A stretch of DNA of 64,000 nt from Gammaproteobacteria bacterium. GTDB lineage: Bacteria > Pseudomonadota > Gammaproteobacteria > Ga0077536. Location: positions 14,473-78,472 of the forward strand of contig JACPPA010000021.1 in NCBI GenBank assembly GCA_016191285.1, in the 5' to 3' direction. Positions 1,072-56,470 of the stretch are shown piece by piece (positions within the stretch are counted from its first letter, which is position 1; the number at the start of each line of letters is the position of its first letter). The translations under genes and the position numbers were made by a program. A model generated the notes under the pieces. The model saw only the letters and a list, made by a program, of their open reading frames with translations. It did not search any database and was not told the DNA's origin.

Positions 1072-2435
1072 GTGGCGTGTTTGCACCGTCGATCAGATTA
1101 AATCGGAAGACGAACGCGCCATTGCCATTGGTCCTTTTGGCTCGCGCATGAAAGCGGACAAGTTATGTCGCGAACGGTGTACCTGTTATCCGGGGAAACA
1201 ACATTTCGGACACTCGCGCACTCATCGGCGATCTCGTTCACGTTTCTGAAGAGACGGCAGACGAACTGCGTTCCTGTAACGTTTTCCCGCGCGACTTGGT
1301 TTTTCCACACCGAGGCGCCATCGGACAGGTTGGAATCGTTCCTGACGACCATAATGGTCGATACGTTCTGTCGACCAGTCTAATGAAGCTGACCTGCAAT
1401 AAAGCGTTGGTAGACCCGCTCTTCATTTTCTACTTTTTCCGATCTGATCTTGGACGTCACGCGCTGCTTCAGAACGCATCAACCGTCGGTACACCCGGCA
1501 TTGGACAGCCGCTAGCTTCGCTTCGCTCGATTTCTGTGCCCGTCCCACCCCTCCCCGAACAATGCGCCATCGCCCACATCCTCGGCACACTAGACGACAA
1601 GATCGAACTAAACCGACGAATGAACGAGACGCTAGAAGCAATGGCGCGAGCACTGTTCAAATCGTGGTTCGTGGATTTCGACCCCGTCCGCACCAAGGCC
1701 GAAGGCCGCGACCCCGGCCTGCCCAAGCCCCTCGCCGACCTGTTCCCGGATTCCTTCGAGGACTCGGAGCTGGGAGAGATTCCGAAGGGGTGGCACGTAC
1801 GGGCCCTTAATGACGTGCTGTCGGAGCTAGAAACGGGCGGCAGACCCAAGGGCGGCGTAGCCGGCTACGCGACAGGTACTCCGAGTGTCGGAGCGGAGAG
1901 CATCGTCGGTCTAGGTGTTTTCGATTATTCCAAGACTAAGTACATTCCTGACGAATTCTTCAAGAAAATGACCAAGGGCCGGACTAAGAGTCGAGACGTC
2001 TTGCTCTACAAGGACGGCGGCCGCCCCGGCGAATTCGAGCCACATGTAACGCTGTTCGGAGACGGATTCCCATTCGAGACATGTGCGATTAACGAGCACG
2101 TTTACCGCATGCGCTTGAATCCGGAAATCGGACAGAACTATCTATTATTCTGGCTTTCATCCGACGTGGTTATGGAAGAAATGCGAATCAAAGGAACTGG
2201 TGTCGCGATCCCGGGTTTAAACTCTACTCAGGTGAAGTCGCTCACCATGCAAGTGCCGCCGACTCAGGTGGCGAAGGCCTTCGATGCACTAACCGATCCG
2301 AGCATCACGAGAATTCTCAGTGCCTGCAAAGAATCACGCACGCTTTGTATCCTGCGCGACTCACTGTTGCCGAAACTGATTTCGGGCGAGGTGCGGGTGA
2401 AAGATGCGGAGACACAAATCGGGAGGGCAGTTTGA
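1061..2435 (+). pseudogene. hsdS: Type I R-M specificity subunit HsdS, disrupted by a frameshift near nt 1160-1166 (or a sequencing error)
   Basis: The N-terminus MAGEWRV...IAIGPFGSRMKADK reads in frame 2. The continuation YVANGVPVIRGNNISDTRALIGDL...LPEQCAIAHILGTLDDKIELNRRMNETLEAMARALFKSWFVDFDP... reads in frame 0, and that frame has a TGA at 1149-1151. Combined length of about 457 aa is typical for HsdS. Confidence 0.75.
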
Positions 2436-2884
2436 TGGCAGACCTAAATCTTACCCAAGCTGAAGCGGACGTCCTTATCGCAATGGTTAAGCATCGGCTG
2501 GACACAACCGAGTGGGACTATCCCGACTTTGGTGGTGTGATCTCAGTTCCGCTGGTATCCATTGATCGACGAGAGCAGTTTCTACTCGACGTTCGCCGAG
2601 GACGAATCGACCTGGCAAAGGGCACATATCAGAATCGCGGTCGCCAGGTCGTAGTACTTGTGCGACTCGACTTCGGTGGGGCGCCGCAACGGAACCCTGA
2701 CGGCGAGGAGATCGGCTCGCCTCATCTTCACGTTTATCGCGAAGGATTCGGCGACAAGTGGGCTCTGACCGTACCTCGCAACCGGTTTACTAATCTGGGG
2801 AACCTTTGGCAAACGCTCGAAGAATTCATGCGGTTTTGCAACATCGTTGACACACAGATCATTAGGAGAGGGCTGTTCACATGA
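2435..2884 (+). CDS. Hypothetical protein (149 aa) embedded in the Type I R-M operon
   Basis: ATG at 2435 overlaps the hsdS stop (TGATG) and is preceded by a GGGAGG RBS. Its stop overlaps the next gene's start (ATGA). No family recognised with confidence. Notable motif [25 protein letters not shown]. Confidence 0.6.
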
Positions 2885-3645
2885 TTGGCGAGATACAGGC
2901 TCTCCTTGATCAATATTGGGCATGGCTTCGTGACAAAACGACCCTCCGTCAGATCGACGACTGGATCGAGATTACGACGCCATACCTTGACCGCCACAAT
3001 GATCAACTCCAGATTTACGCAAGACGCCGTGATAGCGGATTTGTGCTGACTGATGACGGTTATATCCTCCAGGACCTGGCGCAGTCAGGTTGTGGCCTTG
3101 ATAGCGCAAAGCGACAGGCATTGCTCAAGATGACGCTCAACGGATTTGGAGTGCGGGTCAATAACCAGAACCTCGAAGTCCACGCTTCGCCCGATAATTT
3201 TGCGCTCCGTAAGCACAACCTTGTGCAGGCCATGCTGGCCGTAAACGATCTCTTTTATCTAGCGTCGCCCATGGTCGCGAGTTTGTTCTACGAAGACGTC
3301 GTTTCCTGGCTTGACCTGTCCGACATTCGGTATACGCCCAAGGTCAGTTTCCGCGGCAAGAGCGGATACGACCATCTCTTCGATTTCGTGATCCCAAAGT
3401 CCAAGGCCCAGCCCGAACGCATCCTACGGGCGATCAGTCGGCCTAACCGCGACACTGCTCAGTCGGTAGCGTTCTCATGGATCGACACGAAGGAGGTACG
3501 TGCACCGCAGTCTCGCGCCTACGCGATCCTAAACGACGATGGGCATCCTATCGCAGAGACCGTTTTGGATGCTATGCGGAATTACGACGTGCGGCCGGTG
3601 CTCTGGTCTGGGCGAGACGCAGTCAGACAGGAACTCGCGGCCTGA
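2881..3645 (+). CDS. Hypothetical protein (254 aa), translationally coupled to the upstream 149-aa ORF
   Basis: 4-nt ATGA overlap with the upstream ORF. Sits between hsdS and hsdR. No family recognised with confidence. Confidence 0.6.
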
Positions 3646-3675
3646 CCGTGCGCAGATAAAGAAACGTCGCGCAGA

Positions 3676-3850
3676 AACAAGGGACACCCATGTATTCGAT
3701 ACCGATAAGTTTTGATGGGGCCTCACCGCGCCTGAGCGCATTGTCGGATGTCCGCCGAAATACGGGACACCCGTGAATTCGATACCGATAATTATTGATC
3801 GGGCATTGCTCGGTCCGAGCACTATGCTGGGTGTCCCGGAATTCGTCGTC
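3676..3850. promoter_or_regulatory. Three copies of a GGGACACCC / GGGTGTCCC palindromic motif, two inside about 33-nt direct repeats (gggacaccc[a/g]tg[t/a]attcgataccgataa), upstream of rhuM-hsdR
   Basis: Direct repeats at 3676-3711 and 3758-3795, plus an inverted partial copy at 3826-3848. All lie in the 230-nt gap immediately upstream of the RhuM start. Confidence 0.45.
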
Positions 3851-3876
3851 ATGGCAACTATCGAGGATTTGTCGGC

Positions 3877-4875
3877 GTGATCAATCCGATCGATGCGCGC
3901 GGTGGCGAGATCCTGCTCTATGAAGCCCCTGACGGAGAAGTCCGTGTAGACGTACGACTCAATCACGAGACTGTCTGGTTGACGCAGGACCAAATGAGTC
4001 GGCTGTTTGGGCGGGAGCGATCGGTTATTACCAAGCACATCCGCAACCTTTTTCGGGAGGGAGAGCTTGAGCCAGAGGCAACCTGTTCAAAATTTGCACT
4101 GGTTCAAACCGAGGGCGAAAGAACCGTTACACGCGAAACCGATCACTACAACCTCGACGTGATCATCTCCGTCGGCTACCGAGTCAAATCCAGCCAGGGC
4201 ACGCGCTTTCGTCAATGGGCCACCCGTGTATTGCGCGAACATCTGGTGCAGGGCTACACGTTTAACCAGACCCGGCTGGCGGAGCGCAGTCTGCTGGAGG
4301 CGCGACAGACGCTAGACCTTCTTGCGCGCACGCTGCAAAACCAGGCATTAGTGGACGACACCGGTCGCGCGGTCTTGGACCTCATCGTCGGCTACGCCGA
4401 GACTTGGCGCCTACTGCTGGAGTACGACGAAGATCGACTGGCATTACCGTCCGGTGCCAAGCCCTCCTCTGGTGTGCTGGATATTGCGCGAGCCAACGCC
4501 GCGATTGGCAACTTCAAGCGCGAATTGATGGCGCGTAACGAGGCCACGCCACTGTTCGGTAATCCGCGCGGCGAGGCGTTGGAAGGCATTCTCGGCAGCA
4601 TCGAACAGACCATGTTCGGCGAAAGTTTGTACCGATCGCGCGAAGAGAAAGCCGCCAACTTGCTCTATCTGGTCATCAAGGATCACCCCTTCTCGGATGG
4701 CAACAAGCGCATCGGCTCCTTCCTCTTCATGCTCTACTTGCAACAGGAAAGCATGGCGCATCAACTCAATCCACAGGCACTGACAGCCCTTGCGTTGCTC
4801 ATCGCCGAAAGCGCCGCCGCCAACAAGGACTTGATGGTCCGGCTGATCATCAATCTGTTGACGGAACGCCGATGA
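3877..4875 (+). CDS. rhuM: RhuM-family virulence protein with a C-terminal Fic/DOC motif
   Basis: N-terminal RhuM blocks ([33 protein letters not shown] ... [26 protein letters not shown]). C-terminal Fic/Doc motif [11 protein letters not shown]. Typical occupant of the hsdS-hsdR gap. Its stop overlaps the hsdR start. Confidence 0.85.
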
Positions 4876-7800
4876 CGGCCTTCACCGAAACCATCGTCGA
4901 AGACGCCGCCCTCGCCTGGCTCGAAGCGCTCGGCTACTCCGTGCTGCACGGTCCGGACATCGCGCTCGGCGAGCCCGGCGCAGAACGCGTCGATCCGAAC
5001 TATCGCGACGTGCTGCTGGACGATCGCCTGGGTCAAGCGCTCATCCGGCTGAATCCAGACTTGCCACGTGAAGCGCTCGAAGACGCCCACCGCAAACTGT
5101 TGCGCAACGAGGCGCCGTCGCTGCTGGAGCGTAATCGAACCTTGCGCCGGCTGTTGGTGGATGGGATCACCGTCGAATACCGTCGCCCGGATGGCTCAAT
5201 TGCCGGCGGTCAGGCGTGGGTCATCGACTTCGATACCCCGGACAACAATGACTGGTTGGCGGTCAATCAATTCACAGTCGCTGAAGGCCAGCACACGCGC
5301 CGGCCGGATGTGGTGGTGTTCGTCAACGGCTTGCCGTTGGCGGTTATCGAATTGAAAAATCCCGCCGATGAGAACGCGACCGTTTGGAGTGCCCATCGCC
5401 AGTTGGAGACTTATCAGGCGCAGATCCCCGCGCTCTTCATCACTAACGCCGTGCTCGTGGCATCGGATGGCGTGCAGGCGCGTATCGGTGCGCTTGGCGC
5501 GGGCAAGGAATGGTTCAAGCCCTGGCGCACGATCAGCGGACGTGAGATCGCGCCGGCCAAGTTGACCGAATTACAGGTGGTGCTGGAGGGCGTGTTCGAT
5601 AAAAAACGCTTCCTCGATCTGCTGCGCTACTTCATGGTGTTTGAAGACGCCGCTATTTCTGGGGGCGGCGGCAAGCTTACGAAGAAGATGGCGGGCTACC
5701 ACCAGTTTCACGCGGTGAATGTGGCGGTTGAGGAAACGCTCCGCTCGGCGCGATTTGATCAAAGCGAATCACAAGGTCGCTATTCGGCGGGATTACACGC
5801 CGGGGGCGATCCCGGCGATCGGCGCGTCGGCGTGGTCTGGCACACGCAAGGCTCGGGCAAGAGTCTGACGATGGCCTTCTACGTCGGGCGGGTGATCTTG
5901 CATCCGGAAATGCAAAATCCAACCGTGGTCGTGATCACCGACCGCAACGATCTGGACGAGCAACTCTTTAGCACCTTCGCCCTGTGTCGAGATTTACTGC
6001 GACAGCCACCGGTGCAAGCGGCCGATCGCGCCGATCTGCGCGCGAAACTCACGGTCGCTGCGGGTGGCGCGGTGTTCTCCACCATTCAGAAGTTCTTCCC
6101 TGAAACCCCCTCACCCCAACCCTCTCCCGCTGAGGGGCGAGGGGGAAGAATGGAGATGCTCTCGGGTCGACGCAACATTGTGGTGATCGCGGACGAAGCG
6201 CACCGCAGCCAGTACGATTTTATCGACGGTTTTGCGCGCCACCTGCGCGATGCGCTGCCGAATGCGTCGTTCGTCGGTTTCACTGGCACGCCAATCGAAA
6301 CGACGGACGCAAACACGCGCGCCGTCTTCGGCGATTACATCAGTATTTATGACATCCAGCGCGCCGTTGTCGATGGCGCCACGGTGCCCATCTACTACGA
6401 GAGCCGCTTGGCTAAGCTTAATCTCAAAGATTCCGAGCGCCCGAAGATCGATCCCGAGTTCGACGAGGTGACGGAAGGCGAGGAAGTCGAGCGCAAGGAG
6501 AAACTCAAGAGCAAATGGGCGCAGCTCGAAGCGGTGGTCGGCGCCGAGAGTCGACTCAAACTCATTGCGCGTGATCTAGTGGAACATTTTGAGAATCGAC
6601 TGACGACGATGGACGGCAAGGCGATGGTGGTGGTGATGAGTCGCCGCATCGCGGTGGAACTCTACCGCGAGCTGGTGGCGCTCTGCCCGATCTGGCATGG
6701 CGAAGACGATGAACATGGCGCGCTCAAAGTCATCATGACGGGCTCCGCTTCGGATCCGCTCGATTGGCAGCCGCATATCCGCAACAAGCCGCGTCGCGAA
6801 ACATTGGCCGCGCGCTACCGGAACCCGAAGGATCCGTTTCGCATCGTCATCGTGCGCGATATGTGGCTCACCGGTTTCGACGCGCCGAGCATGCACACGA
6901 TGTATGTGGATAAGCCCATGCGTGGGCACGGGCTGATGCAGGCCATCGCGCGCGTGAACCGCGTATTCAAGGACAAACCCGGTGGCTTGGTCGTCGATTA
7001 TTTGGGGTTGGCCGACGAACTGAAACAGGCGATGGCCACATACACCGAAGCCGGTGGCACCGGCAAGACGGCCATCGATCAAGCCGAGGCTGCGGCGTTG
7101 ATGTTGGAAAAGCATGAGATCTGCTGCGCGCTGTTTCACGGCCTCGATTGGTCGCCGTGGACCTCGGGTACGGCGCAAGCTCGGCTCTCGCTGCTGCCGG
7201 CCGCGCAGGAGCACATCCTGGCCCAGGATGACGGTAAGAATCGGCTATTGCGCGCTGTCTCCGAGCTCTCTCAAGCGTTTGCGCTGGCCGTGCCGCACGC
7301 AGAGTCGATGCGGATCCGCGATGACGTGGGTTTCTTCCAGGCGGTGCGCGCCGTGCTCGCCAAGCGCCTAGCCGGCGATCGTAAAGCGGACGACGATCTC
7401 GACCATGCCATTCGGCAGATCATCTCGAAGGCGATGGTCTCGGACGAAGTCGTCGATATCTTCGCCGCCGCAGGCCTGAAGAAGCCCGATATCTCGATCC
7501 TCTCCGACGAGTTTCTCGCCGAGGTGCGCAATTTACCGCAACGTAACCTTGCAGTGGAACTGCTGCAAAAACTGCTGAAGGGCGAAATCAAAACGCGGGC
7601 CAGGCGCAATGTGGTGCAGGCGAAGTCGTTTGCGGAAATGCTGGAACAATCGCTGCGGCGCTACCAGAACCGGGCGATCGAAACGGCCAAGGTCATCGAG
7701 GAATTGATCCAGCTTGCAAAGGACATGCGGGCCGCGAGTCAACGCGGCGAACAACTCGGTCTCAACGATCACGAGGTCGCGTTCTACGACGCATTGGAGA

Positions 7801-8048
7801 CCAACGACAGCGCCGTGAAAGTGTTGGGCGACGAGGCGCTACGCACGATCGCGCGCGAACTGGTCAAGACGGTGCGCGCCAACGTCACCATCGATTGGAC
7901 GATACGCGACAATGTCCGCGCCCAGCTTCGTGTGCTGGTCAAGCGCATCTTGCGCAAATACGGCTATCCCCCGGACAAGCAAGAGAAGGCCACGCAAACG
8001 GTATTGGAGCAGGCCGAGGTGTTATCCGCGGAGTGGGCGGGGGTGTAG
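4872..8048 (+). CDS. hsdR: Type I restriction enzyme R subunit HsdR (1058 aa)
   Basis: Helicase motifs ([10 protein letters not shown] Walker A; [15 protein letters not shown] box), size and operon context. Carries an in-frame palindromic element at 6104-6152 that encodes [15 protein letters not shown]. Confidence 0.9.
6104..6152. repeat. GC-rich palindromic element inserted in-frame in hsdR
   Basis: cccctcaccccaaccctctcccgctgaggggcgaggggg lies between the conserved TIQKFF and [12 protein letters not shown] blocks. Same element type as hsdM 789-832. Confidence 0.55.
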
Positions 8049-8613: not shown

Positions 8614-9801
8614 CTACCGAACCTTGATCATCACCATGAAGCCATCGGCGAATTTCTGCGCGCCGATATGAAAATCACCATTGATGTCGGAGATCAGCAG
8701 CGAATCGCCGGCGAACGCCACGCCGACGGGGTTCGCCAATCCCGAGGCAACTAGCACGAGCTCGCCCTGTGGCGTCACGCGATAGACGCGGCCATCGCTG
8801 GGAACTCGTTCCGTCGCTTCGACCTCGTTGTTCCAATCGCCGGCATCGCTGATGAAGAGCTCGCCGGCGAACCTGCCGAAGCGCTGGGGTGCAAAGGCCA
8901 TCGCGCCTGGCTCGTGCAGCCCGTTGACGAACGGTTGCGGCGTGATGGTCCCAGCGGCGGATACCCGCAAAATCCTGCCGCCCCCTGGTATCGTCTTGGC
9001 GCGATTGCCCGGTGTCGGCGCGGCACTGCCGAGCAACATCGTTTCCCCATCGGGCGTGAAGCCAATGCCCCGCGGAGAGCCCCACTTGGCCAAATCCACG
9101 GTCAGGAATGGCGTACAAGCGCCGTCGGGTGTGACTTGATAAAGGGTGTGATTGCTCGCCGCCGTGACCCACAGCTTGCCGGCAAACGGGCCGTGTTCGG
9201 GACCGAATCGCGCAAAGAAGCCGCCGGCGCCCGGTTCGTGCGCGTCGTTTTCCGGGAGGAAGCAGACGACGGTGTCACGGCCCGTCGCCGGATCGATACG
9301 CGTAATAGCATCGGGCAATTCCCACCCGCCGGCCTTCTCCGGCTTCGCGAACGCGACGGTATAGATCTGTCCCGCAAACTTGCCGAAGCTCGGCGGCGCC
9401 ACGTCCAGCGAAATCGGCGCGTGCTGCTTGATGTCGGCAAGCACTGCAACGTGGCCGTCCGTCGTGACCTCGAAGATCGCGCCGCTCTTGGCATCGTCCG
9501 CGACCCACACCGTCGTGTCATCGACCACGTGGATATCGAACGGATCGTAAAGTTGCGTTCGCGGCGGGACCAGCACGGTAAACGTGAATTCGTCTGCCGT
9601 CTTGATCGGCGGAACGGCGAACACGCGCGCGAGTGTTGCCTTGGACACACTCAACGGTAGCTGCACCCAATCGGGCGCGTCCTTTTCCATCTCCGTGGGG
9701 GAAGACGCGCGCGCCGACGCTTCCGCTGCGATGGTCATTGGCGCACTCGCCAGACAGGTCCACAGGCAAATGACGGTTAGCAACAGTGGGCTGTGCCGCA
9801 T
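8614..9801 (-). CDS. Secreted beta-propeller protein (SMP-30/gluconolactonase/LRE-like or NHL-like repeats)
   Basis: Internal ATG at 9801 with an AGGAAG RBS. Signal peptide MRHSPLLLTVICLWTCLASAPMTIAAEA. Repeated ...TxDG... blade motifs (VWVADDAKSGAIFEVTTDG, LWVTAASNHTLYQVTPDG, RVYRVTPQGELVLV). Confidence 0.6.
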   Translation of the reverse strand: MRHSPLLLTVICLWTCLASAPMTIAAEASARASSPTEMEKDAPDWVQLPLSVSKATLARVFAVPPIKTADEFTFTVLVPPRTQLYDPFDIHVVDDTTVWVADDAKSGAIFEVTTDGHVAVLADIKQHAPISLDVAPPSFGKFAGQIYTVAFAKPEKAGGWELPDAITRIDPATGRDTVVCFLPENDAHEPGAGGFFARFGPEHGPFAGKLWVTAASNHTLYQVTPDGACTPFLTVDLAKWGSPRGIGFTPDGETMLLGSAAPTPGNRAKTIPGGGRILRVSAAGTITPQPFVNGLHEPGAMAFAPQRFGRFAGELFISDAGDWNNEVEATERVPSDGRVYRVTPQGELVLVASGLANPVGVAFAGDSLLISDINGDFHIGAQKFADGFMVMIKVR

Positions 9802-10230
9802 ATTCACTTCCTCATCAGTGCGTTTGTTCCGCGCGAAAAACGACGTTCGCGCCAATGCTACGATTGATAGGGACGACTTTGACAAGCCGTGGATCCCCGC
9901 CTCATCCGGGAGCCCACGCAGCGCGCCGGCGAGGTCATACGTCCAGCCATGAAAGCCGCAGGTGAAGGCGGCACACTTGCCGGACTCACGCGTTTCCACG
10001 ACGTGGCCGCGGTGGCGGCTCAGATAATCCATCGCCGGACGGGCCACTGCCAACATCGCATCGTAGAACGCTCGAATCTCGGCCATGGTCGACGCTTGTC
10101 GCTTGGCGGCTCGGGCATTCGAATCCGGCAGCACCCAGGCACTGACGAAGCCTTGCACGGCATCGAAGCCGGCGGGAAGTTGCGGATGCGCCGAATGGCT
10201 GGCAGTCGGATCGTCGGGCTGTGCGGTCAT
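9802..10230 (-). pseudogene. Degenerate Rieske [2Fe-2S] domain fragment (ring-hydroxylating dioxygenase alpha-subunit-like), fused in-frame with no stop to the downstream secreted-protein gene
   Basis: LSRHRGHVVETRESGKCAAFTCGFHGWTYDLAGALRGLP matches the Rieske CxH-x16-CxxH box, but the first Cys is Ser. Only about 140 aa, against about 430 aa for an intact alpha subunit. No stop before the signal-peptide Met at 9801. Confidence 0.35.
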
Positions 10231-35440: not shown

Positions 35441-35499
35441 GTTATGAGTGCTGTCCCCGTTGAACTTGCACAGGACACGCGCTGCTGGCGGCGCTTGGT

Positions 35500-35625
35500 G
35501 GAAGCCGCCTTGTGGGAGCTGCCTTGTGGGAGCTGCCTTGTGGGAGCCGCTTTAGCGGCGAATCTTTTTTGACGACTGATGTGATCCGCCATTTCGCCGC
35601 TAAAGCGGCTCCCACCATAGCAATG
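35500..35625. repeat. REP-like cluster: three tandem half-sites (gtgggagctgccttgtgggagctgccttgtgggagccgctttagcggcgaa) plus the inverted partner
   Basis: Direct reading of the sequence. Same family as 23991-24060. Confidence 0.7.
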
Positions 35626-45089: not shown

Positions 45090-45450
45090 CTCGATAGGCG
45101 TTGTCGTCGTGGCGTCCGACCCTGCACCCGTCATGCCGGCGCACGCCGGAATCCAAAGAGCCTCAGAGCACCTACCACCGTCATGCCGGCGAACGCCGGA
45201 ATCCAAAGGGCCTCAGAGCACTCCCACCGTCATTCCGGCGAATGCCGGAATCCAGTGAAGAAATACTGTCCGCGCAATGCGCGGACACCTAATCCGACTG
45301 GATCCCGGATAACCGCTCCGCGAATGCCGGGATGACGGCGTGAGAACCGCGCCGCGCTCGCTACCCCCAACACCAGCGCGACAACGCCATCGAGTGTTTA
45401 CCCGGCCTGTTACGCCGGAATGACGATAAGTAAACTCTGGCGCACTTCGG
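45090..45450. repeat. MITE-like composite repeat cluster: three tandem 48-nt VIPAKAGI-type units plus a 110-nt module shared with 8290-8480
   Basis: ccaccgtcat[g/t]ccggcgaa[c/t]gccggaatccaaag.gcctcagagcac repeated three times (45117-45250), then an about 140-nt segment near-identical to 8340-8470. Confidence 0.75.
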
Positions 45451-47799: not shown

Positions 47800-47960
47800 C
47801 GGTTCAACTAAATAACGGAGCGTAAATACCGTCCACCCTACGCAGGTTGGGCTTTAACCGCGTCATGCCGGCGTGATCCCGGCTTTCGCCGGAAGGAATC
47901 CAGGACAATTAGCTATTCGACTGGGTCCCGGCATTCGCCGGGACGACAGTAGTGCATTCC
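47800..47960. repeat. MITE-like repeat element (family shared with 56100-56230)
   Basis: ataccgtccaccctacgcaggttgggctttaaccgcgtcatgccggcgtgatcccggc...aggaatccaggaca...ttcgactgggtcccggc. Near-identical to 56105-56225. Confidence 0.7.
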
Positions 47961-56094: not shown

Positions 56095-56470
56095 CGTGCG
56101 AACTAAATAGCGAAGCGGAAATACCGTCCACCCTGCGGAGGTTGGGCTTTAACTGCGTCATTCCGGCGTGGTCCCGGCCTGCGCCGGGAGGAATCCAGGA
56201 CATTGAGTTATTCGACTGGGTCCCGGCGTTCCAGGCCGTGTAAAAACTCCAAGTGAATTGGAGCAGCAGGGAACAAGAACCCAGTACACGTCATTCCGGC
56301 GAACGCCGGAATCCAGAAAAAAAGCAGATCCGCGCGCTGCGCAGAGGCCTACTCTGACTGGAAAGCCGGAGTTTCGCTTTGCGAATTCCGGGGTGACGGA
56401 CGGCGGTTCGAGTTTTTACACGCCCTCGTTCGCCGGCACGGACACCGCGCGTAAACCACGACGAAGGTCT
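56095..56470. repeat. MITE-like composite repeat cluster
   Basis: Copy of the 47800-47960 module (56105-56225), plus a VIPAKAGI-type unit (cgtcattccggcgaacgccggaatccag, 56290-56318) and a degenerate third module. Confidence 0.7.

Follow-up and report, generated by a model that had tools for sequence, protein, structure and literature searches.

The question raised by this locus is what two small genes are doing between the specificity gene and the restriction gene of a Type I restriction-modification (R-M) operon. The locus opens a stretch of 64,000 nucleotides (nt) from a Gammaproteobacteria bacterium (contig JACPPA010000021.1), and this entire stretch is called the window. The two genes, here named A (149 amino acids, aa) and B (254 aa), lie downstream of hsdS and upstream of hsdR. 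An earlier note, made from the sequence alone, had proposed that they form an uncharacterised two-gene defence or toxin module riding on the R-M operon, and its author did not recognise either protein. Judged by profile matches, the A-B pair is one instance of a catalogued candidate defence system, PDC-M24. We favor the view that the two genes form a cassette of the toxin-antitoxin (TA) or abortive-infection type that is autonomous, moves horizontally and occupies the cargo slot between hsdS and hsdR, and give this view a probability of about 0.6.

The A protein matches Pfam DUF6978 (PF22398) over the entire profile (positions 1-133/133) with 143.7 bits, where the gathering cut-off is 29.6. 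It also matches the PADLOC model PDLC04538 (PDC-M24A) with an E value of 3.3e-53, residues 6-149 aligning with profile positions 2-145 of 146. The B protein has two Pfam domains, DUF1828 at residues 33-121 (96.6 bits, gathering cut-off 22) and, C-terminal to it, DUF1829 at residues 159-245 (110.5 bits, gathering cut-off 22.2). Residues 5-254 of B align with profile positions 4-255 of 255 in PDLC04539 (PDC-M24B), with an E value of 2.2e-104. A and B are adjacent, on the same strand and overlap by 4 nt, and together they match both component models, which is the gene content that defines PDC-M24. NCBIfam has no model for either protein, and no housekeeping family matched.

PDC-M24 is one of 145 "guilt-by-embedding" candidates, nominated because their genes lie inside Type I R-M, BREX or DISARM loci and added to PADLOC without individual testing (Payne, Hughes, Fineran and Jackson 2024, bioRxiv 10.1101/2024.01.29.577857). 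The novelty implied by the failure to recognise the proteins is therefore lost, as the domains are in Pfam and the pair is already catalogued. The proposal of an uncharacterised candidate module carried on a Type I R-M operon stands, given that both proteins match a system defined from embedded genes; the defence activity is a prediction from sequence. The defence hypothesis repeats a prediction already in a public database and reached by the same logic, and the pair in the window is a further copy of a catalogued candidate family, not a new kind of system.

The family is large. Clustering at 90% identity gives 2,422 relatives of A and >7,700 of B, and A has 1,041 representatives at the 50% clustering level. 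With one genome taken per species, at least 562 genomes have a close B relative. The best 120 relatives each of A and B are 70-89% identical to the window proteins, and identical proteins are annotated in a Gammaproteobacteria metagenome-assembled genome. The 80 best-matching loci for B in the one-genome-per-species scan are 69-83% identical. These loci belong to Gamma-, Beta-, Alpha- and Deltaproteobacteria, Chloroflexota, Planctomycetota, Nitrospirota, Acidobacteriota, Binatia, Bacillota, Chlorobi, Latescibacterota, Myxococcota and others. Such breadth at such identity argues for frequent horizontal transfer under strong constraint.

Gene A lies directly upstream of gene B in 69/80 loci. The A/B junction is ATGA in 60/67 related loci and GTGA in 6/67; because one of these two overlaps is found in 66/67 loci, the overlap is not a matter of chance. 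The genomic context was examined by tblastn of the window HsdM, HsdR, A and RhuM proteins against the 80 loci, and 49 loci counted as well flanked, having 6 kb or more upstream and 4 kb or more downstream. Among these close relatives of an embedded query, 29/49 are flanked on the same strand by HsdM upstream and by HsdR downstream, 5/49 have one of the two, and 15/49 have neither within 10 kb. The B stop is often within a few bases of hsdR: the inferred HsdR start is no more than about 10 nt away in 13 loci, and no more than about 110 nt away in about 20/49 HsdR-bearing loci. Pfam-annotated contigs from five independent sources show the order Methylase_S, DUF6978, DUF1828/1829, HSDR. The hsdS-hsdR slot of these contigs often contains further cargo, including PIN/VapB, HigB with a helix-turn-helix (HTH) partner, Zeta toxin, GmrSD, Mrr and SLFN/AlbA_2. 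Two of the loci with neither gene have a Methylase_S gene upstream, and others are located beside fatty-acid genes (L047), an AddB-like helicase-nuclease or a sulfatase (L008).

The earlier note had asked whether homologues recur inside Type I R-M loci, and they are strongly concentrated between hsdS and hsdR. It had also named housekeeping homology, or a lack of enrichment near defence genes, as grounds for abandoning the idea of a defence module; there is no housekeeping homology, and enrichment in defence loci is clear.

The identity of B is uncorrelated with that of the flanking HsdR (rho -0.02) or HsdM (rho 0.05), the latter two ranging from 30 to 80%, while B and A identities are correlated (rho 0.35, p 0.003). 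B tracks A but not HsdR or HsdM, and A-B therefore moves as one unit between unrelated R-M operons. The pair is inherited as a unit, and its conservation far exceeds that of the surrounding R-M genes.

One sediment population is represented by ten contigs (L081-L090) with identical B and same-sized A and HsdR. Their HsdS proteins are 427, 429 or 440 aa long and the Fic genes upstream differ, which suggests specificity-subunit shuffling inside a single population.

The pair is also found outside R-M operons. Distant B homologues (24-34% identity) are present in temperate phages. In Lactobacillus prophage Lj965 the repressor is followed by a metalloprotease, then by a protein of 152 aa, B, a hypothetical gene, one annotated for superinfection exclusion, and the integrase. 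Staphylococcus phage 37 and Streptococcus Javan642 have a repressor, a protein of about 150 aa, B and an integrase. The small upstream proteins in these prophages match DUF6978 and PDC-M24A, and the B-like proteins match PDC-M24B. A gene located between repressor and integrase and co-oriented with both is typically exclusion or defence cargo expressed in the lysogen. IncP plasmid pRSB223 has an A-B pair with a 4-nt overlap, and its A protein matches Pfam DUF6978. A-B also occurs in IMG/VR viral contigs, and both proteins are in PHROG families. As the prophage and plasmid copies show, the pair can do without an R-M system next to it.

Separately, the match in four IMG/VR contigs (L116-L119) is limited to the N-terminal half of B, residues ~6-130, at 55-58% identity. 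This is the DUF1828 part, and phages may thus encode stand-alone chaperone-like domain proteins.

The upstream partner of B varies. Four R-M-embedded loci (L010, L043, L070, L072) have, in place of A, a B paralogue of about 260 aa (B') that is 17-21% identical and matches a second PDC-M24B model, PDLC04540, so that B' and B stand in tandem and DUF6978 is absent. Directly upstream of B in L011, where A would be, is a PDC-M02B protein (8808-9962). Chimeric open reading frames (ORFs) in L012 (9537-10004) and L022 (9570-10004) keep only the C-terminal ~25 residues of A (…FCRVVEPPVIRRGLFT), joined to foreign sequence. The last three loci suggest that cargo in the slot has been replaced by other cargo. 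No A-sized gene is annotated upstream of B in a Streptococcus satellite or in a prophage-like plasmid record from Staphylococcus delphini. With its partner replaced or missing in these variants, B looks constant and its partner exchangeable. Two database proteins fuse DUF6978 to DUF1828 with exactly the spacing that read-through across the ATGA overlap would give. These fusions are weak evidence of partnership and could be frameshift artefacts.

What the proteins do was approached through conservation and structural models. The conspicuous 25-residue block that had been noticed in one of the two proteins is present and is its family's most conserved motif. In an alignment of homologues 21-59% identical to A, residues K19, L75, R77, N87, H97 and H99 are invariant, and the family motif is HxNPDG...PHLHxY. 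The AlphaFold2 model of A is confident, with a predicted local distance difference test score (pLDDT) of 85.7, and describes a small, mostly β protein. The model has no match to a known fold; Foldseek against viral models returned only one probable family member, and searching PDB sequences with profiles from four alignments (A1, A2, A3, A4) yielded no meaningful match. An active site of the metal-independent RNase-like or phosphotransfer kind, or else a metal site, would be compatible with the invariant Lys/Arg/Asn/His/His set.

The N-terminal domain of B is modeled as a type III secretion system (T3SS) chaperone/YbjN-like fold, α-β-β-β-α-β-β-α, similar to solved members. It resembles the T3SS class I chaperones and YbjN-like proteins SicP, InvB, SpcU, STM2138, AmyR and the DUF2170 protein PA14_16140. 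Sequence identity to these proteins is only 5-16% and the likeness is one of fold alone; B has, moreover, an extra C-terminal domain, DUF1829. Unlike the setting of T3SS chaperones, no neighbourhood examined contained secretion genes. Twelve diverse B and B' sequences share invariant P34, D58, L66, Q116, D123, V140, G159 and D219, and D168 is nearly invariant.

A PD-(D/E)xK nuclease was considered for DUF1829, as suggested by GKSG...FDFVIP, and is not supported, no (D/E)xK being conserved in the 12 diverse members. E179 varies among E, T and S, D168 is the only candidate catalytic position that is nearly invariant, and the following strand has no conserved E/D-x-K. As E179 is not conserved, the nuclease reading of DUF1829 is unsupported.

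The features of the locus are as follows.

13-1071, + strand: hsdM, Type I R-M methyltransferase (Pfam N6_Mtase, 1e-72); its 5' end is cut off by the window start.
1061-2435, + strand: hsdS specificity subunit, frameshifted (Pfam Methylase_S, 1.9e-16; frameshift seen in a three-frame translation).
2435-2884, + strand: gene A, 149 aa, DUF6978 / PDC-M24A (Pfam PF22398, 5e-42; PADLOC PDLC04538, 3e-53).
2881-3645, + strand: gene B, 254 aa, DUF1828 plus DUF1829 / PDC-M24B (Pfam, 1e-27 and 6e-32; PADLOC PDLC04539, 2e-104).
3646-3876, strand not applicable: non-coding B-rhuM spacer of 231 nt, with a tandem duplication and inverted arms.
3764-3792, + strand: sigma-70-like promoter candidate, GGGACA-17 nt-GATAAT, in the second repeat copy.
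3877-4875, + strand: RhuM-Fic/Doc protein, 332 aa, GTG start, PDC-S23 (Pfam Virulence_RhuM and Fic; PADLOC).
4872-8048, + strand: hsdR, Type I restriction subunit, 1058 aa (ORF; domains are those of the identical gene in assembly L098).

The gene order hsdM-hsdS-A-B-rhuM-hsdR on the + strand is as first described, and both small genes are real. It had also been said that every junction overlaps by 1-4 nt. This is correct for hsdS/A (TGATG, a 1-nt overlap of the hsdS stop with the A start), for A/B (ATGA, 4 nt) and for rhuM/hsdR (ATGA, a 4-nt overlap of the rhuM stop with the hsdR start). It does not apply to hsdM/hsdS, which overlap by 11 nt, or to B/rhuM. Since 231 non-coding bases separate B from rhuM, the locus consists of two translationally coupled blocks, hsdM-hsdS-A-B and rhuM-hsdR. 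A single co-translated operon is not supported, as the spacer with its promoter-like site stands between the blocks. We infer that each block is a separate transcript, which matches the two-promoter layout that is classical for Type I R-M loci.

The spacer contains an 83-nt tandem duplication in two copies, 3670-3752 and 3753-3835, that are about 73-75% identical. Each copy has GGGACACCC(R)TG(W)ATTCGATACCGATAA; GGGACACCC and GGGTGTCCC are inverted arms within the spacer, with an inverted GGGTGTCCC arm at 3829-3837. The motif has no other copy in the window and none in the 80 related loci. The repeat has no Rfam match, and it folds only modestly better than shuffled sequence (z -2.5). The duplication may be a promoter or operator for rhuM-hsdR, and the promoter-like site at 3764-3792 may drive these genes.

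The hsdS gene is not one intact ORF. Its first ~32 codons, from the ATG at 1061 to GSRMKADK, are in a frame that stops at 1249. The remainder (SYVANGVPVIRG..., SYVANGVPVIRGNNISD...; YVANGVPVIRG...) is in the +1 frame and runs to the TGA at 2433-2435. The extra base is near 1155-1157, where there is no homopolymer or simple repeat, and the sequence at this point is the same in a Logan assembly made independently (L098). The embedded cargo ORFs are intact, unlike hsdS. A genuine frameshift may mean an inactive restriction system whose cargo nevertheless persists, which fits cargo autonomy.

In the L098 copy the identical hsdR gene has the domains HSDR_N, ResIII, SWI2_SNF2, T1R_D3-like and T1RH-like_C. 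Both hsdM and hsdR contain GC-rich palindromes of the CCCTCTCCC...GGGAGAGGG type. In-frame insertions resembling repetitive extragenic palindromic (REP) elements are found in hsdM at about 558-644 and 793-830, and hsdR has an in-frame, GC-rich palindromic insertion of this kind at 6107-6146; tblastn alignments to relatives are interrupted at these insertions. One hsdM element combines a 21-nt tandem array with GTCATTCCGGCGAAAGCCGGAATCC, which is found again at 45131-45253 in 3 copies, at 47874 and at 56291. A tandem repeat at 45128-45254 (50-nt unit, 2.6 copies) has at its core the REP-like palindrome that is also seen in hsdM. Another tandem repeat, with a 14-nt unit in 3.6 copies, is found at 35498-35547.

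The RhuM-Fic protein encoded downstream of the spacer matches PADLOC PDC-S23 with an E value of 1.2e-121 over residues 11-329, and its RhuM N-terminal domain matches PDC-S05 with 7e-78. Its Pfam matches are Virulence_RhuM (1.3e-25) and Fic (7.7e-10). Its 11-residue Fic motif has Lys replacing the second Gly of the canonical motif, which we take to be the Doc-type variant. This agrees with a match to the PHROG Doc-like toxin (7e-15) and a sub-threshold match to DOC_P1, and the sequence suggests a Doc-like kinase rather than an AMPylase. RhuM-Doc (PDC-S23) is a separate single-gene cargo coupled to hsdR and is not part of A-B. A PDC-S05 representative with a RhuM domain protected E. coli B against T7, T5 and T4 (PMC12881386). 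The RhuM-Fic protein shares the RhuM domain with PDC-S05 and occupies the slot just upstream of hsdR; its Doc-type Fic domain is not mentioned in the description of the tested PDC-S05 protein.

How might the pair work? The A-B cassette would be lodged in the cargo slot of the Type I R-M operon and borrow the operon's expression. A and B would be made from the hsdM-hsdS message, their translation being coupled to that of hsdS, and rhuM-hsdR would be driven by its own promoter in the 231-nt spacer. The T3SS-chaperone/YbjN fold typically dimerises and holds a partner polypeptide. B could likewise be a dimeric chaperone-like regulator or sensor that holds A, and A could be an effector that is released or activated by phage infection, whereupon the infected cell would stop growing. 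The matches and counts given above establish the family assignment, the A-B unit and its independence from the host R-M genes. A defence function for the pair is probable from its context. The division of roles between B as regulator and A as effector is tentative and rather doubtful; it draws on the modeled chaperone fold, the constancy of B against an exchangeable A, and analogy with the validated DS-6 system.

Several observations weigh against the mobile-cassette view or its parts. Since the query is itself embedded and the 80 loci are its closest relatives, the proportion of embedded loci may be too high. Defence genes are not usually 69-89% identical across phyla, and the pair could interact with a conserved host component. 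Gene A has no recognisable catalytic fold, and which of the two proteins is the toxin is a guess. The C-terminal DUF1829 domain of B is modeled with a pLDDT of 32-43, which is too low to assess its fold. Contact between A and B is putative, the fusions being possible artefacts. The promoter-like site matches 9/12 consensus positions, which is not above shuffle expectation. A literature search found no mention or experimental test of PDC-M24, and defence is inferred from context only. DUF6978 returned only a passing mention in two Staphylococcus omics papers, and the literature searched for PDC-M24, DUF6978 and HipAD contained no functional data for the A-B pair.

One alternative is that the pair is an accessory or guard of the Type I enzyme. 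It would remain silent, like PrrC in EcoprrI, until a phage anti-restriction protein disables the complex, or it would modulate restriction or restriction alleviation. The tight gene arrangement is consistent with this: the A start overlaps the hsdS stop in the window, HsdR starts close to the B stop in relatives, and 29/49 well-flanked loci are fully embedded. Very high conservation would make sense if the partner, for instance HsdM or HsdR, were itself conserved, and the chaperone-like domain of B is a protein-binding fold. B identity, however, does not follow HsdR or HsdM identity, 15/49 well-flanked loci lack both genes within 10 kb, and the pairs in prophage lysogeny modules and on the IncP plasmid have no adjacent R-M genes. 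Unrelated cargo occupies the same slot, the PADLOC search found no PrrC similarity, and in the window A and B are intact beside a frameshifted hsdS. We regard the guard reading as unlikely.

A selfish addiction module is a second alternative. A-B would then stabilise the mobile DNA that hosts it, whether R-M cargo slots, plasmids or prophages, and have no direct anti-phage role. As expected of a Type II TA system, A-B is a small bicistronic pair with coupled translation and a conserved overlap, ATGA here and ATGA or GTGA in relatives. It has spread horizontally across phyla, is present on plasmids and prophages, and adjoins classical TA pairs in the same slot. A Type II system would also be expected to pair a toxin of known fold or family with a DNA-binding antitoxin, and neither was found; Pfam detects no antitoxin-type domain (HTH, ribbon-helix-helix or AbrB) in A or B. 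The position between repressor and integrase is typical of exclusion or defence genes expressed in lysogens, and in Lj965 the pair is two genes from the gene annotated for superinfection exclusion. TA and defence roles are not mutually exclusive. Addiction with no part in defence appears improbable.

A bolder version of the guard idea is that DUF6978 is an effector enzyme of a new fold, with Lys19/Arg77/Asn87/His97/His99 forming a metal-independent RNase-like or phosphotransfer site. It would be silenced by a DUF1828/DUF1829 protein that monitors the co-translated R-M complex, and would fire when a phage neutralises restriction. We think this quite improbable; if true, it would be a second, PrrC-independent way of guarding R-M systems.

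A non-defence function, such as a YbjN-like stress or regulatory protein with a partner that hitch-hikes in R-M loci, is very improbable: the best fold matches of the B N-terminal domain do include a biofilm-operon regulator (DUF2170, 8q8o) and the YbjN-family AmyR, and some relatives are located among metabolic genes (the fatty-acid genes of L047 and the sulfatase of L008), but the association with R-M, other defence cargo and prophage lysogeny modules is strong and repeated, no NCBIfam or housekeeping family matches, and a patchy spread across phyla at about 70-80% identity indicates mobility.

PDC-M24 is a worthwhile experimental target, being abundant and unusually conserved, about 70-89% identical across more than a dozen phyla, with an effector candidate that has no known fold. 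This analysis adds to the catalogue entry a confident A model without a known fold, five invariant residues (K19, R77, N87, H97, H99), the chaperone-like B N-terminal domain, the joint travel of A and B independently of R-M, and the finding of A-B in the lysogeny modules of Firmicute prophages. Should defence be demonstrated, the known repertoire would gain a common system whose effector has a new fold.

Known systems invite comparison. The PrrC anticodon nuclease of EcoprrI, with an ABC-ATPase-like N-terminal and a nuclease C-terminal domain, is likewise cargo embedded in a Type I R-M cluster and is a model for a latent effector linked to R-M. A-B differs from it in that it consists of two proteins, matches PDC-M24 models only and no PrrC model in PADLOC, and has no ATPase domain in Pfam. 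Its embedding is also not obligate, A-B often being found without R-M genes.

DS-6, or HipAD, is a validated system that consists of a HipA-like kinase and a DUF3037-DUF1829 protein, and it newly implicates DUF1829 in defence (PMC13092281). In A-B the candidate effector is DUF6978 and not a kinase, the N-terminal domain of the second protein is DUF1828 and not DUF3037, and the DUF1829 likeness is by domain name only. Like A-B, DS-6 has two genes, and its second protein, with DUF1829, is proposed to bind and control the upstream effector.

The closest comparison is with PDC-M24 as catalogued. Loci with pseudogenes were left out when the PDC candidates were defined (bioRxiv 10.1101/2024.01.29.577857), and the copy in the window, unlike those pseudogene-free loci, sits beside a frameshifted hsdS. 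In the pair itself there is no structural difference: the same two components are present over their full length, adjacent, on the same strand and inside a Type I R-M operon.

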